43,804 bases of DNA from Synechococcus sp. (lineage in GTDB: Bacteria; Cyanobacteriota; Cyanobacteriia; Thermostichales; PCC-7336), in NCBI GenBank assembly GCA_051439425.1, contig JBFRWD010000098.1, forward strand, positions 1 to 43,804. The letters are read 5' to 3'. Made by a program: the position numbers and the translations under genes. Under the pieces are notes generated by a model. That model saw only the letters and a list, made by a program, of their open reading frames with translations. It had not been told where the DNA came from and made no database searches. This document shows positions 4,367-43,804 of the stretch, piece after piece. Numbering within the stretch: the first letter of the stretch is position 1; each line of letters opens with the position of its first letter.

Positions 4367-5947
4367 TCAGCCTAACAGTGCATCTCCAGACAGCCGCTGA
4401 TACAGTAGAGCACCCGTCCAAAACGTTGCTGCAAAACCAGGGTAACCAGACGAAGCATTGCAGAAATAAAAGTTCTCAAGTGAGGATTGGTGGTTCAGAC
4501 GGCCCAGTCCCATATTACGAGGGGTCAGGCTGGAACCATACGAATTTCCGCTCGGACACCAGCAAAAGCGCTCATTTGTGGTTGGGGTGCCGGAAATGGC
4601 AAACACTAAATGCTCTCTAAGTCCGGGAATGTATTGCTGTTCGACCGTATCGAGGATTGAATTTAGAATCTCTTCCTTCTTCTGGTTGTATTCTTTACGA
4701 CTCGTTTCTAGAAGCTGTTTGAAGTACTTGTAGTTCGCGACCGTGAGAAATTCAATAATTTGGCAATCTTCCGGGCAATCTCGAACGGAATCTGTCAATA
4801 GCGTTGGAGTTGTAATGGCAAAGCTAGGATTCGAATAATCAGCGTCCTCATACATTGCTGCGAATGCTTGATTTAAGTCGGGGTGGCCCGAGTGAAACAG
4901 ATTGGTCTTGCCAAATCCATAGTCCCTTAGATCTAAATCTTTGACGACACAGTAAGCCATAAAATTAGACGGGGAGTAATCATAATCGAGTTTTTTGCGA
5001 ACTGCTGGAGAAAAGCGATCGCGCCCAATCAATTGGGCCGCCTTCTGGGGATCCATGTTGCAAATAATGGTTTCCCCCACAAATTGTTGAGGTTCGTTCG
5101 ATCGCACATCTCGTGCCATCACTCCAATGACTCGCCGCCCCTCAACATAAAATTCCGTGACTTCATGATTGAGGATGACTGTTCCCCCATGTTTCTCAAT
5201 GACCTCAACAAGTGAGTCGATAACAAAATCAAAGTGTTTGGTGGGATAAAAAGCTCCCTCTTGATACCCCGTAAACAAAATCACCCAAGCATAGAATGAC
5301 AGTTGGTCGGGTGGGAGCATAAAATCAGGCCACTGCAAAGCTAGGAGTGTTTGGGCTGGGAGCGGCAACTGAAATTTATCGAAGACCTGCTGCAGCGTAC
5401 TGTTGAGATATTGAATTGTACTCAGAACGATAGGCAACTGTCGCAATAGCTTGACTGGTGAAATCGGGGGAGCCAATATCTTGAGCCCCTGCCGCACCCG
5501 TTGCACCTCAAGAACGAAATCTCGGAGGCGATCGCTACTGTCAGGAAATAGTTCGGTCAACCGTCGAATTAACTCTTGAGAATCGGAGGGGATATCGAGC
5601 GAGTATCCCGGCATTCGCATGCGATCGAAGCCAATGGGATCGTATCGTTCAAATGTGACAGCGTCCTCCAAGTTCAGCTTTTTTAAGACTCGGTTGACAG
5701 TATTTCCTTCACCGCAGTCCCAAACATAATGCAATTGAGCATTGAACGTATACTTCTTCGCCATCGTAAATGAATGACCGAAGCCCCCGACATGTTCGTG
5801 AGCTTCCAAGATTTGTACGGTTTTGCCCGCCTGAGCCATCAGCGCTCCAAAGACAAGTGCTGATAGTCCGCTGCCAACGATCAGATAGTCGGGATTCCTA
5901 AGCTCAGAGGGTAGGTTGGTATCTAATGGAGTTTCAATTTGAAGCAT
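4367..5947 (-). CDS. Phytoene desaturase / retinol saturase-like FAD oxidoreductase
   Basis: LIVGSGLSAL, LEAHEHVGG, GTPTTNERF...GNSYG, LENFYFCNASSGYPG pattern of the CrtI/RetSat-like family. Confidence 0.8.
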   Translation of the reverse strand: MLQIETPLDTNLPSELRNPDYLIVGSGLSALVFGALMAQAGKTVQILEAHEHVGGFGHSFTMAKKYTFNAQLHYVWDCGEGNTVNRVLKKLNLEDAVTFERYDPIGFDRMRMPGYSLDIPSDSQELIRRLTELFPDSSDRLRDFVLEVQRVRQGLKILAPPISPVKLLRQLPIVLSTIQYLNSTLQQVFDKFQLPLPAQTLLALQWPDFMLPPDQLSFYAWVILFTGYQEGAFYPTKHFDFVIDSLVEVIEKHGGTVILNHEVTEFYVEGRRVIGVMARDVRSNEPQQFVGETIICNMDPQKAAQLIGRDRFSPAVRKKLDYDYSPSNFMAYCVVKDLDLRDYGFGKTNLFHSGHPDLNQAFAAMYEDADYSNPSFAITTPTLLTDSVRDCPEDCQIIEFLTVANYKYFKQLLETSRKEYNQKKEEILNSILDTVEQQYIPGLREHLVFAISGTPTTNERFCWCPSGNSYGSSLTPRNMGLGRLNHQSSLENFYFCNASSGYPGFAATFWTGALLYQRLSGDALLG

Positions 5948-41303: not shown

Positions 41304-41637
41304 GGTGGGGCTGATGGAAAATGCGCTGGCGATCGCGTTGGAGTATGCGGCGCGGGAACGGGCCGAGCGGATCGAGACGCTATCTCTGCGGGTGGGGACG
41401 CTGTCTGGGGTGGAGCCGGATGCGTTGCGCTTTGCCTTCGACATCGTTACCCAAAACACGATCGCCGAAGGAGCCCAATTGAACATTCAATCTTGCCCGA
41501 CTCGTTGCTATTGCGAGGTTTGTCAACGAGAGTTCGAGCCGGCGGAGATGGGTTACGACTGTCCTGTCTGTGACACCTGGAGCCAGTCGATTGTGCAGGG
41601 TAAAGAGCTGGAACTAGCCTCGTTGGAGGTGTCCTGA
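41296..41637 (+). CDS. hypA: Hydrogenase nickel metallochaperone HypA
   Basis: MHEVG, G.LSGVEPDAL.FAF, two CxxC motifs, GKELEL. Confidence 0.94.
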   Translation: MHEVGLMENALAIALEYAARERAERIETLSLRVGTLSGVEPDALRFAFDIVTQNTIAEGAQLNIQSCPTRCYCEVCQREFEPAEMGYDCPVCDTWSQSIVQGKELELASLEVS

Positions 41638-42422
41638 TGTGTAGCGATTGCGGCTGTAGCGATGTCAAATCTGTAGAGCTGGAGGGGACAACGATCGCGC
41701 TGGAATCCCCCGACCGTTCCCCTCGCACCCTCGACATTCACCAGCGTTTGCTGTCGAAGAACGATCGCTTTGCCCAACACAACCGCGATCGCCTGCAATC
41801 GTTGGGGTTGCTATCCCTAAACATCATGTCGTCACCTGGTTCCGGGAAGACGGCTTTGATTGAACGGACTGCCGAGATGTTGGCCCGAGAGGGCAAGCGG
41901 GTGGGGGCGATTGTAGGAGATTTGGCGACGGAGAACGATGCGCGGCGGTTGAGGGCGGCGGGGGCAGAGGCGGTGCAGATTACGACGGGGACGGCTTGCC
42001 ATTTGGAGGCGGAGGCGATCGGTCATGCGATGGATCGTTTGCCTCTGGAGACGCTGGATGTGTTGGCGATCGAGAATGTGGGGAACTTAGTTTGTCCGGC
42101 GGCTTACGACTTGGGGGAATCGCTGCGGGTGGTGCTGCTATCGGTGACGGAGGGGGAGGATAAGCCGTTGAAGTATCCGACGGCGTTTGAGGCGGCGGAT
42201 GTGGTGGTGCTAACAAAGGTGGATATTGCGGAGGCGCTGGGGTTCGAACGGGAAGAGGCCCTGGGGAATATTCGGCGGATGGCTCCACAGGCAGAGGTAA
42301 TTGAAGTTTCGGCGCGATCGGGGGGGGGGATGGATGAGTGGGTTGCCTATTTGCAAAGCAATAAGTCGAGCAGCAAGGATTCAAGCTTGACTGAACTATC
42401 ACTGACAAGGGACAGGCATTGA
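41637..42422 (+). CDS. hypB: Hydrogenase nickel incorporation GTPase HypB
   Basis: N-terminal CSDCGC, SSPGSGKT, TGTACHL, ENVGNLVCPA, EGEDKPLKYP. Confidence 0.95.
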   Translation: MCSDCGCSDVKSVELEGTTIALESPDRSPRTLDIHQRLLSKNDRFAQHNRDRLQSLGLLSLNIMSSPGSGKTALIERTAEMLAREGKRVGAIVGDLATENDARRLRAAGAEAVQITTGTACHLEAEAIGHAMDRLPLETLDVLAIENVGNLVCPAAYDLGESLRVVLLSVTEGEDKPLKYPTAFEAADVVVLTKVDIAEALGFEREEALGNIRRMAPQAEVIEVSARSGGGMDEWVAYLQSNKSSSKDSSLTELSLTRDRH

Positions 42423-42470
42423 AATCAGATAAAGAGAAGATTTTTCGGTGAAATGCGGGTAACACGCACG

Positions 42471-42499
42471 TGCATTGCTCACTCAATGCAAGAATTTTT
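42471..42499 (+). terminator. Possible terminator after hypB
   Basis: TGCATTG-ctcact-CAATGCA hairpin followed by AGAATTTTT. Confidence 0.35.
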
Positions 42500-42600
42500 A
42501 GGTGGCTGGGCGATCGCTTGTTTGGTTCAATCCGACTAATGTCTTGTTTCGGTATGCTATCCGGGCAAAACGCTAGTTTCAGGCCGAAGAAAAACCGGAA

Positions 42601-42749
42601 GTTTCCGCCTAAACACCCATTTCGAGGATATTATCCGGAAAACCCTTTCTATTAGACACCTGATTTGAGGTGTTATGCGAAATGTTTCCTCCTAATCCAA
42701 CCATAGAGGCTTATTCGGCGGCATAAGTCCGTCTAATCAATAGTTAGCC
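42601..42749. repeat. About 3.5 degenerate ~42-bp palindromic repeats ending in a GTTAG core (attI-like / recombinase-site array)
   Basis: Left arms at ~42602, 42646, 42685, 42727 (TTCCGCCTAA, TTCTATTAGA, TTCCTCCTAA, GTCCGTCTAA); GAGG at 42624, 42667, 42706; right arms TTATCCGGAA (42631), TTATGCGAAA (42673), TTATTCGGCG (42711). Confidence 0.6.
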
Positions 42750-43684
42750 ATCCAATATCGATGACAGATATCGCATCAACTTCGCCCCGGCCGTTCTGCT
42801 TTGTGCTTATGCCGTTCAGCACGGACTTCGACGACATCTATCAAATTGGCATCAAGGAAGCATGTGACGCCGCAGGCGCCTATTGCGAGCGCGTTGATGA
42901 ACAGATTTTCCACGAATCGATTCTCGAGCGTGTGTACAATCAAATCGCCAAGGCCGATTTGTTGATCGCGGACATGACTGGTCGGAATCCGAATGTATTT
43001 TACGAAGTCGGTTACGCACACGCTTTGTCGAAGCGAACGATTCTGCTCACACAAAACGCGGATGACATTCCGTTCGATTTGAAACACTTCCCCCATATCG
43101 TGTATGGCAATCGTCTGGTGGCACTTCGTGGCGACTTGAAGACTCGCATCGAATACTTCATCAAAAACCCGGTCGAGAAAATCAGCGGCAGCACGATTGA
43201 CATCGATCTGTTTTCGGGCAAACAAAACCTGTCAGCTGGCAATGCTGTCGGGCAGTTTCTGGCGAGCGAAGTCCCGAACGTAAAGATCACAGTGCATAAT
43301 GCGTCCGCCGAGACATTTTCACCCGGTGACTTCAAAATTGGTGCAATAACTGACAGCGATTTTCCAAAATTCCATGGCAAGAGCGTCCGCACGACGCCGA
43401 TGCCGGATGGCCATTTCCTTCACATGCTGCCCGATTTTGAACCCCTGTTTCCGAACGCGTTTGCCTCCTTTCATTTCATCCTGGAGCATAGCCATAACTC
43501 GCAATTCCTCGCGGAGATCGAGATCGATGTGACATTCCGTGTCTTTACGGCGTTAGGGACACGAGACTATCCAATCACTCTACGCAAGGTGAAAAGATAT
43601 TACTAACAATTTCGTGAACCGGAACGGCGAATCAGGGCGAAATAGAATGGAAAGCTTAACGTCGCCGCCCGGTTACGCTAGGCG
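42744..43684 (+). mobile_element. Integron gene cassette (single promoterless ORF plus attC)
   Basis: Starts at G|TTAGCC (42743-42749), 18 nt before the ATG; ends at G|TTAGGT (43684-43690); the ORF stop lies inside the attC R'' box, whose CTAAC complements the 5' GTTAG. Confidence 0.8.
42761..43606 (+). CDS. Nucleoside 2-deoxyribosyltransferase/TIR-like domain protein with unknown C-terminal domain
   Basis: CFVLMPFS...DDIY, RVDE, I.KADLLIADMTGRNPNVFYEVGYAHAL.K.TILL, DIPFDL in the N-terminal ~135 aa; the C-terminal ~140 aa look beta-rich and were not recognised. Confidence 0.75.
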   Translation: MTDIASTSPRPFCFVLMPFSTDFDDIYQIGIKEACDAAGAYCERVDEQIFHESILERVYNQIAKADLLIADMTGRNPNVFYEVGYAHALSKRTILLTQNADDIPFDLKHFPHIVYGNRLVALRGDLKTRIEYFIKNPVEKISGSTIDIDLFSGKQNLSAGNAVGQFLASEVPNVKITVHNASAETFSPGDFKIGAITDSDFPKFHGKSVRTTPMPDGHFLHMLPDFEPLFPNAFASFHFILEHSHNSQFLAEIEIDVTFRVFTALGTRDYPITLRKVKRYY

Positions 43685-43690
43685 TTAGGT
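43601..43690 (+). other. attC recombination site (90 bp)
   Basis: R'' TACTAAC (43601-07), 5-nt spacer, L'' CGTGAACC (43613-20); L' GGTTACG (43671-77), 6-nt spacer, R' GTTAGGT (43684-90). Stem CGT[G]AACCGG[A]ACGGCGA pairs with TCGCCGCCCGGTTACG, leaving two extrahelical bases on the left arm. Confidence 0.85.
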
Positions 43691-43804
43691 TTCTGCTGTC
43701 CTCAAGATGAAATTGGGGGCGCTAGCCTGCAATCTCGATAAGACTCTGACGTATTTCTTGATGCCTGCACATAGCATTTTCCTTGGAGTGAATGCATCTG
43801 CAAC

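Follow-up and report, generated by a model that had tools for sequence, protein, structure and literature searches.

The DNA stretch analysed here, referred to as the window, is the whole 43,804-nt contig JBFRWD010000098.1 (C98) of a draft genome of Synechococcus sp. (GCA_051439425.1, denoted G000; 182 contigs, 4.8 Mb, 96.17% complete, 1.12% contaminated). The window contains hox and hyp genes and many GCGATCGC motifs, and close to its right end an array of degenerate palindromes sits in the 338-bp gap between hypB, which ends at 42422, and an open reading frame (ORF) for 281 amino acids that starts at 42761. This array, at 42524-42749, is very probably the attI site of a chromosomal integron from which the integrase gene (intI) has disappeared. 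The locus is a decayed form of a known system, one of seven relics in this genome, and does not represent a new kind of system. The GC content, 0.57-0.61 in the hyp genes, drops to 0.44-0.51 in the relic and the gene cassette that follows it. The features of the locus are the following (a slash within a junction sequence, as in G/TT, marks the crossover point).

42524-42749, plus strand: attI region (very probable), member of a family of about 230 bp
42528..42567, plus strand: unit 0, a degenerate palindrome beside the former intI start, aligned with C172 and other copies
42601..42641, plus strand: unit 1, left arm TCCGCCTAA, right arm TTATCCGGA (one mismatch to TTATGCGGA)
42644..42683, plus strand: unit 2, left arm TTTCTATTAG, right arm TTATGCGAA (one mismatch)
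42684..42722, plus strand: unit 3, left arm TCCTCCTAA, right arm eroded (TTATTCGGCGG)
42727..42749, plus strand: core (simple) site, L arm GTCCGTCTAA (42727-42736), spacer TCAATAG, R arm TTAGCC
42744..43684, plus strand: integron gene cassette, 941 bp, bounded by G/TTAGCC and G/TTAGGT
42761..43606, plus strand: cassette ORF, 281 aa, TIR-like / nucleoside 2-deoxyribosyltransferase-like (Pfam, PADLOC)
43601..43690, plus strand: probable attC of the cassette, called by eye; R'' TACTAAC (overlapping the stop codon), R' GTTAGGT
43685..43804, plus strand: next cassette-like element, start only, reaching the contig end; the first ~60 nt resemble an ORF-less repeat of the genome G002
42419..42500, minus strand: probable intI 5' remnant (~30 codons), frameshifted, shortened and heavily decayed, from a marginal DNA alignment
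41637..42422, plus strand: hypB, the gene on the integrase side (ORF; orthologue in the genome G001 79% identical)

Each unit of the array is an inverted pair of arms of about 9-10 bp, with a TTCCGCCTAA-type arm on the left and a TTAKGCGGA-type arm on the right. From unit 1 to the core the spacing is 41-42 bp; unit 0 precedes unit 1 by 73 bp. Relative to G42743, the left arms are found at -212, -139, about -98, -56 and -15, and the right arms at -112, -70 and about -29. The left arm of unit 0, TCCGACTAA, occupies 42531-42539; its counterpart in the copy on contig C172 reads TCCGACTAA...TTAGGCAGA. The inner stem of unit 2 (ACACCT/AGGTGT) folds with a z-score of -3.45. In the core, GTCCGTCTAA is followed by TCAATA and then by GTT at 42743-42745, so that two inverted arms, a 7-bp spacer and a GTT at the crossover are all present, as expected of an attI core; the crossover itself is predicted to fall between G42743 and T42744. 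An earlier note on this DNA, made from the letters alone, had described three units (42601-42641, 42645-42682 and 42684-42721), a fourth left arm (42727-42736) and the 11-mer TTATGCGAAAT (42673-42683). All these strings are located where the note placed them, but the array begins near 42524, i.e., further upstream than the note had it, and unit 0 was missed.

The array belongs to a family of seven copies on seven contigs of G000 (C98, C33, C77, C153, C172, C174 and C175). The 15-mer CTAATCAATAGTTAG, at 42733-42747 in the window, occurs exactly five times in the 4.8-Mb assembly (C98, C33, C153, C172 and C175). C77 carries the sixth copy, with one mismatch in the 15-mer (the reversed control pattern has one match in G000), and the seventh, degraded copy (C174:13680-13832) was detected in a profile search with E 1.6e-9. 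In a BLAST search of the genome, the intergenic gap matches C172:10995-11217 with 66% identity over 227 nt (E 0.009). When the window copy was left out of an nhmmer profile, the search recovered it at E 6.3e-22, and a stricter profile, from which its two closest relatives were also left out, still recovers it at E 2.8e-15. Exact TTAKGCGGA occurs 47 times in the genome, and pairs of this motif (same strand, no more than 130 nt apart) are found at five attI loci only in the 4.8 Mb, with a spacing that is always 40-42 nt. The repeats are real, far beyond chance. In the alignment of the copies, the similarity of the window to the others spans ~42524 to 42747 and stops directly after GTTAG, and every copy diverges right after G/TTAG. 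The homology thus has variable end points on the intI side and a common G/TT end on the other, and the copies are always oriented toward the cassette and away from the intI stub. They adjoin unrelated genes, namely, hypB, lepA, a ChlD-like gene, an acyltransferase gene and genes of an extracellular contractile injection system (eCIS). No integrase adjoins the window copy, so the dispersed, integrase-less copies envisaged in the earlier note do exist; the genome search for motif copies followed by cassettes that it had called for yields these seven copies, with attC-like sites after the core in four of the six copies scanned, the one in the window being recognised by eye only.

The identity of the array as an attI site follows from its homology to sequence located beside intI, both in C172 and in a relative (G256), from the cassette junction at G/TT and from the locus-specific arms. 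The same homology bears out the earlier suggestion of an attI-like site that ends at the GTT before the cassette. In a search of G000 with the integron-integrase model TIGR02249 (cut-off 265 bits), the single partial integron-integrase match is C172:11251-11523 (positions 1-91, 87 bits, four stop codons). No intI in G000 reaches the cut-off (87 bits being the best score), there is no TIGR02249 match on contig C98, and two other weak matches both fall within one gene on C64, which encodes a Xer-like recombinase. The intI pseudogene of C172 is located ~34 bp from the attI copy, on the opposite strand and in divergent orientation, which is the textbook arrangement of intI and attI. Against an IntI profile constructed here from ten intact relatives, this stub matches positions 1-97 (97 codons) with E 3.8e-40. 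The stub in C174 covers positions 3-45 (about 43 codons, E 6e-7), and C153 retains 17 recognisable intI codons (MQKGPKRLLERMQDSLRL) that are not significant alone. With intI stubs of such different lengths, the copies look like complete integrons that each lost intI. These stubs, along with a marginal trace in the window, point to loss and speak against the free-standing design put forward in the earlier note; its trans-acting integrase finds no support in G000 either, the only match other than the stub being Xer-like. The trace in the window, at 42419-42500, is probably a decayed 5' relic of intI: two blocks, at ~42478-42491 and 42419-42440, align collinearly with the parts of the C172 and G002 stubs that code for LLDxVRD and RRFILFH. 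Neither TIGR02249 nor the constructed IntI profile detects an integron integrase nearby, and IntegronFinder would presumably label the locus a single attC site lacking an integron integrase (SALIN) or a clustered set of attC sites without an integron integrase (CALIN).

The protein encoded in the 941-bp cassette matches the Pfam family PF05014 with E 8.4e-6 and 26.3 bits, which is below the 28.8-bit cut-off, and the PADLOC model PDLC00733 'Effector TIR' with E 6e-11; a search of NCBIfam gave no match. These similarities make the 281-aa protein a candidate defence effector. The putative attC of the cassette was recognised by visual inspection and from its resemblance to a single other attC, the one after the C33 copy (78% over 87 nt, E 1e-13). 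It includes L'' CGTGAACCGG and L' CCGGTTACG, the latter with an unpaired G, and its R'' is complementary to the 5' end of the cassette at five of the seven positions (TACTAAC versus GTTAGCC). The C33 cassette contains one ORF, and its attC R'' GACTAAC is the exact complement (7/7) of the cassette's own 5' end GTTAGTC; similarly, in C153, R'' GCCTAAC is the exact complement (7/7) of GTTAGGC. Such complementarity in C33 and C153 is the hallmark of attI x attC insertion. Downstream of the C172 copy there are at least four attC-like sites, and the five local attCs align well only at the R boxes. Directly after the window attC begins a diverged copy of an ORF-less element that, in G002 (a genome of the same genus), is repeated after GTTAGG at attI/attC junctions in at least five copies (TTAGGTTTCTGCTGTCCTTAAG...AATTGGGAGGTGCTAGCCTGCGATCGCC...AAACCTAAC; L036, L037 and L052). 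This element has no Rfam match in G002 and may be a non-coding cassette. An Rfam scan of 42300-43804 in the window gave nothing meaningful, with two matches at E above 1. The locus is present in one metagenome run (X1), which may be its source and for which the evidence consists of assembled contigs; in two sister runs it is almost entirely absent. The X1 contig extends only 22 nt past the window end, and a metagenome scan with a 22-mer spanning the window core returned no matches.

Defence-type genes are abundant in the relic cassettes (window 42761-43606; L063:1588-2301; L061:4963-5496; L062:6991-8031), and three of these are first cassettes. The first cassette in C153 encodes a TIR_2 domain (PDC-S66 / ThsB-like), the first cassette in C33 encodes a RelA/SpoT domain (PDC-S33), and the fourth large ORF after the C172 core contains a TIR_2 domain. 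The C33 relic with its single RelA/SpoT cassette is itself embedded in a contractile-injection-system locus (L062, G000:C33:51000-60600), flanked upstream by a gene for a T4 gp19-like tail tube protein and downstream by a gene with an eCIS core domain. Storage of phage-defence genes in integron cassettes has been reported recently (10.1101/2024.07.02.601686), and the cassette content found here fits.

A complete version of the same layout is present in G256 (L075), where intact intI (574 bits, positions 2-320, no stops) lies beside an attI with the arms TTATGCGGA and, twice, TTAGGCGGA, a spacing of ~41 bp and, ~270 bp away from the start of intI, a core ...CCAATAAATAGTT. By reading of the sequences, the unit-plus-core layout also adjoins intI in G049 and G023, with no stops inside the match, and in G001 (same genus), with an intI that carries one TAA stop. 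In G002, the attI homologue adjoins an intI stub, and the genome contains five intI fragments. Among the 61 nearest genomes, 27 have an intI match over the cut-off; several matches in one genome are frequent, and many matches are fragments. When 401 genomes of the class were surveyed for arm pairs with the family spacing, 33 places in 24 genomes were identified, compared to 9 places in 8 genomes for the reversed control pattern. Outside G000, there are 25 loci, 19 of which have a core recognisable by eye or an IntI trace; the other six may be chance. Intact adjacent intI is found at only one of these 19 loci (G256), nine have fragments, eight have none, and at one the flank is too short. Complete integrons are far rarer than relics of the TTAKGCGGA-arm attI type. 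G057 has both an orphan attI with this type of arm and an intact intI elsewhere in the genome.

Within the class, the genome G034 also contains five CTAATTAATAGTTAG sites (the G034 loci concerned are L020, L028, L032, L034, L041 and L042). At L020 and L028, the upstream sequence is shared with different-looking attI regions that lie beside the intI genes of G034 itself. Orphan attI copies may be common in other attI families, too.

To assess the conservation of the arms, 32 units from 25 loci were aligned together with the window. The pairing of the palindromes is 71.9%, compared to 68.5% in column shuffles, and the covariation is weakly above shuffles (0.179 versus 0.134, a value equalled by 2 of 500). 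Because the pairing is nearly explained by column composition, the arms are conserved as sequence and not as structure. Conservation of this kind fits binding of a protein to duplex DNA, as is the case for attI, and would be a misfit for an attC-like hairpin. The reverse-oriented attC-like hairpin that the earlier note saw in the last ~60 bp did not hold up on folding (z-scores -0.26 and -0.21), with 75 and 74 of 200 shuffles, respectively, folding equally well or better. When six copies, the window included, were compared, not one accessory arm of the window copy was found to be exact (the closest three being TTATCCGGA, TTATGCGAA and TTATTCGGCGG), versus two or three in each of the other five. 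The identity to the other copies is 43-57% for the window units and 72-96% for the window core. The window copy is the most eroded of the six. Among C172, C153 and C77, the computed identity is 82-86% over units 1-3 together and 96% in the core; by reading of the alignment of these three (A1), it is ~70% in unit 1, reaches 80-85% in unit 2 and is nearly complete in unit 3 and the core. This rise in identity toward the core, despite the different neighbour genes, could reflect gene conversion anchored at the crossover or graded constraint.

The history of the locus can be tentatively reconstructed as follows. An IntI tyrosine recombinase would have bound the arms, with the accessory units serving, by analogy with attI1, as extra integrase-binding sites. 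The double-stranded core would have recombined with the folded attC of a circular cassette, the cut falling between G42743 and T42744, and this event would have inserted the 941-bp TIR-like cassette. Later, intI would have been deleted down to a decayed trace of ~80 bp that now abuts hypB, and the relic might have persisted owing to its position just upstream of a retained cassette gene. Given the six further relics and the lack of an intact intI in the genome, the window site is most likely inert today as a recombination site.

Several observations weigh against this reconstruction. The scores of the two intI trace blocks are equalled by 104 and 34 of 1000 shuffles (p about 0.03-0.1), and there is no protein-level signal for the constructed IntI profile between hypB and unit 0. 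The window trace is therefore marginal, and the case for integrase loss at the window locus comes mainly from the paralogues. With the draft at 96.17% completeness in 182 contigs, the portion not assembled could contain an intact intI. The central stem of the window attC folds, but the overall z-score is only -1.1, and a crude attC scan missed this site. A simple sigma-70 promoter scan of 42380-42800 found no sites, which leaves the idea that the relic was kept as a promoter or 5' region unsupported. Furthermore, the core 15-mer is identical in five of the seven copies while the flanks are only about 50-85% alike, and pure neutral decay does not predict an identical core with divergent flanks.

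The latter pattern is one of the points in favour of another interpretation, under which the orphan attI copies are working landing pads under selection that share one integrase encoded elsewhere and together make up a distributed integron; the integrase could come from a part of the genome missing in the assembly, from a plasmid or phage, or from a transient visitor. The dispersal of seven copies beside unrelated genes is compatible with this scenario, as are the identical 15-bp core next to diverged flanks when the cores of relatives differ, the single intact adjacent intI among the 19 non-G000 loci, and the coexistence in G057 of an orphan attI with an intact intI. Moreover, trans mobilisation of CALIN cassettes has already been raised by Cury et al. 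(PMC4889954). Nevertheless, working landing pads appear unlikely. There is no intI over the cut-off in G000, and stubs of unequal length indicate that the copies started as complete integrons. The lack of any exact accessory arm in the window copy, compared to two or three elsewhere, resembles erosion rather than maintenance. The contigs of X1, a single run in which assembly into contigs would hide rare variants, show no alternative joints at the core or attC. Finally, intI is mostly broken within the genus (five fragments in G002, one TAA stop in G001). The same doubt applies to the broader proposition that the attI sites of this clade, probably cyanobacteria, outlive their integrases as working landing pads for one shared, possibly transient or horizontally supplied IntI, which would serve many dispersed one-cassette sites next to core genes, these sites mainly stocking defence genes; if it were true, the core identical in five of the seven copies and the one intact intI among 19 loci would be the mark of a shared integrase.

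Three other explanations were considered. Genuine attC sites contain R''-L''...L'-R' boxes with AAC/GTT ends, are about 57-141 nt long and conserve structure more than sequence. It is very unlikely that the units represent a series of degenerate and very short attC sites without ORFs, i.e., empty cassettes in front of the first real one. The outer arms of the palindromes do resemble R''/R' boxes (GCCTAA...TTAGGC), the right arm of unit 3 in C172, C153 and C77 (GTTAGGC) is a perfect GTTRRRY box, and only 2 of 500 shuffles reach the weak covariation. However, at ~40 nt the units are shorter than the known attC sites (about 57 nt or more), most lack the AAC/GTT ends, the slight excess of pairing over shuffles is largely compositional, and the number and order of the units are conserved beside intI across genera. 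Examined as attC candidates, the ~40-bp units were rejected on length and pairing, and the last 66 nt do not surpass shuffled sequences in folding. It is highly improbable that the cassette was inserted at an ordinary secondary site (attG, consensus GWT) after hypB and that the upstream repeats are unrelated to integrons: the junction does have a GTT, and isolated cassettes (SALINs) arise in this manner in experiments (Loot et al., 10.1101/2022.09.11.507474), but the 230 bp upstream of the junction are homologous to intI flanks in C172, G002 and G256, and the same 15-mer precedes other cassettes. Finally, there is hardly any chance that the region is a dispersed repeat of the repetitive extragenic palindrome (REP) or miniature inverted-repeat transposable element (MITE) type, the end of an insertion sequence (IS) or a Xer/dif site. 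The family is indeed multi-copy, dispersed and palindromic, but there are no terminal inverted repeats around a unit-length element (the repeat search gave short, low-identity pairs), the copies face the cassette and back onto the intI stub, and there is no Rfam match. As a candidate IS or MITE end, the region was rejected for the lack of such terminal repeats and because the copies end variably on the intI side and constantly at G/TT. Xer/dif sites consist of two ~11-bp inverted arms with a 6-8-bp spacer, normally one site per replicon. The 11-mer TTATGCGAAAT, which resembles the consensus of a XerD arm and was described in the earlier note as a Xer-type half-site, turns out to be the right arm of unit 2, a mutated member of the arm family that reads TTAKGCGGA in other copies; it has no partner arm at 6-8 bp, and the family has seven copies. 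The family is neither single-copy, nor an attC or REP-type repeat, nor an IS end, which are the outcomes that the earlier note had named as fatal to its own proposal.

On the integrase side, the gene adjoining the attI relic is hypB (41637-42422, plus strand) and not intI, exactly as the earlier note had it. The orthologous hyp cluster of G001 is 77% identical over 2196 nt, with the similarity stopping at about 42316, and no attI or cassette follows hypB in that genome. The presence of a hyp cluster without the element in G001 indicates that the element, or a rearrangement that brought it, is lineage-specific. The last ~35 codons of hypB in the window (42317-42422) have no counterpart in the G001 orthologue, and the stop codon borders the putative intI relic; the junction may have given hypB a new 3' end. 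Within this putative relic, at 42471-42490, the plus strand carries a terminator-like hairpin and T-run, where transcription of the hyp genes may now stop. In G000, the counterpart of the DNA downstream of hypB in G001 is C164:1694-2194; neither a cassette nor an attC is obvious at the start of C164, and hence no join of the contigs is inferred. The G002 copy nearest to the window copy is not beside hypB, and the copy on contig C61 of G003 has only 284 bp in common with C172, with otherwise different flanks; the G002 and G003 copies yielded no pair of orthologous orphans by which integrase loss could be dated relative to cassette change. In G001, contig C7 carries an intI (4-771, positions 59-314, beginning at the contig start) ~3.8 kb from a hypB paralogue (4548-5177), another case of intI and hypB as neighbours that may be a coincidence.

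Among the known systems, the closest parallel in organisation is attI1 of class 1 integrons, which consists of a simple site and the upstream integrase-binding repeats DR1 and DR2. attI1 is located between intI and the first cassette; the window has a marginal trace on the intI side, and the homologous copies of C172, C174 and G002 adjoin intI stubs and that of G256 an intact intI. Both sites have two inverted arms with a ~7-bp spacer and a crossover at G/TT, further copies of the arm motif are found upstream, and the cassette is joined exactly at the GTT. The differences are that here there are three to four inverted pairs with a ~41-bp period, in contrast to the two direct repeats of attI1, that the arm sequence in the window is distinct, that there is no adjacent integrase gene, and that the accessory binding sites are predicted from sequence. 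A limited literature search, which is no proof of absence, found no published description of such an attI architecture or of orphan attI sites.

Like CALINs and SALINs, the window has a cassette and a probable attC, with no intI within reach and no intact intI in the genome. It has been reported that 95% of CALINs are without a recognisable nearby intI pseudogene and that the majority of integrons have no known attI (PMC4889954; 10.1101/2022.09.11.507474), and loss of intI is listed among the origins of CALINs (Cury et al. 2016, PMC4889954). The window differs in that the attI is recognisable and the paralogues retain intI stubs, so that an origin by integrase loss can be read directly, with no need to assume an attG insertion. 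At least some SALIN/CALIN loci, then, are integrons that lost intI and not secondary-site insertions. According to the same survey, attI sequences are known for only a few integron classes and hence are not searchable by tools (PMC4889954); this is why most integrase-less cassette clusters have no traceable origin. The attI family described here is recognisable by its tandem palindromes, TCCGCCTAA / TTAKGCGGA arms and ...AATAGTTAG core, which provide a search handle for relics, and the relic family is a concrete substrate for testing whether orphan attI sites can be used in trans by an integrase.

Decay of integrons is itself a known phenomenon, about one third of intI genes being pseudogenes (Nemergut et al. 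2008, PMC2426708). In Xanthomonas, decayed chromosomal integrons have been described in which intI is inactivated by stops, frameshifts or deletions and the arrays are frozen (10.1101/2025.06.18.660453). The relics in G000 share with these a chromosomal integron platform in which intI is destroyed and the cassettes are kept. The Xanthomonas case, however, involves one ancestral locus after ilvD, whereas seven relics are dispersed in the single genome analysed here, mostly with one or few cassettes and with nearly all of intI deleted. The G256 integron has the same arm motif, ~41-bp spacing and core layout as the window copy, but its integrase is present and its arms are exact, whereas neither the integrase nor a single exact arm is left in the window copy. 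What these relics add to the known framework is that attI itself can be recognised.

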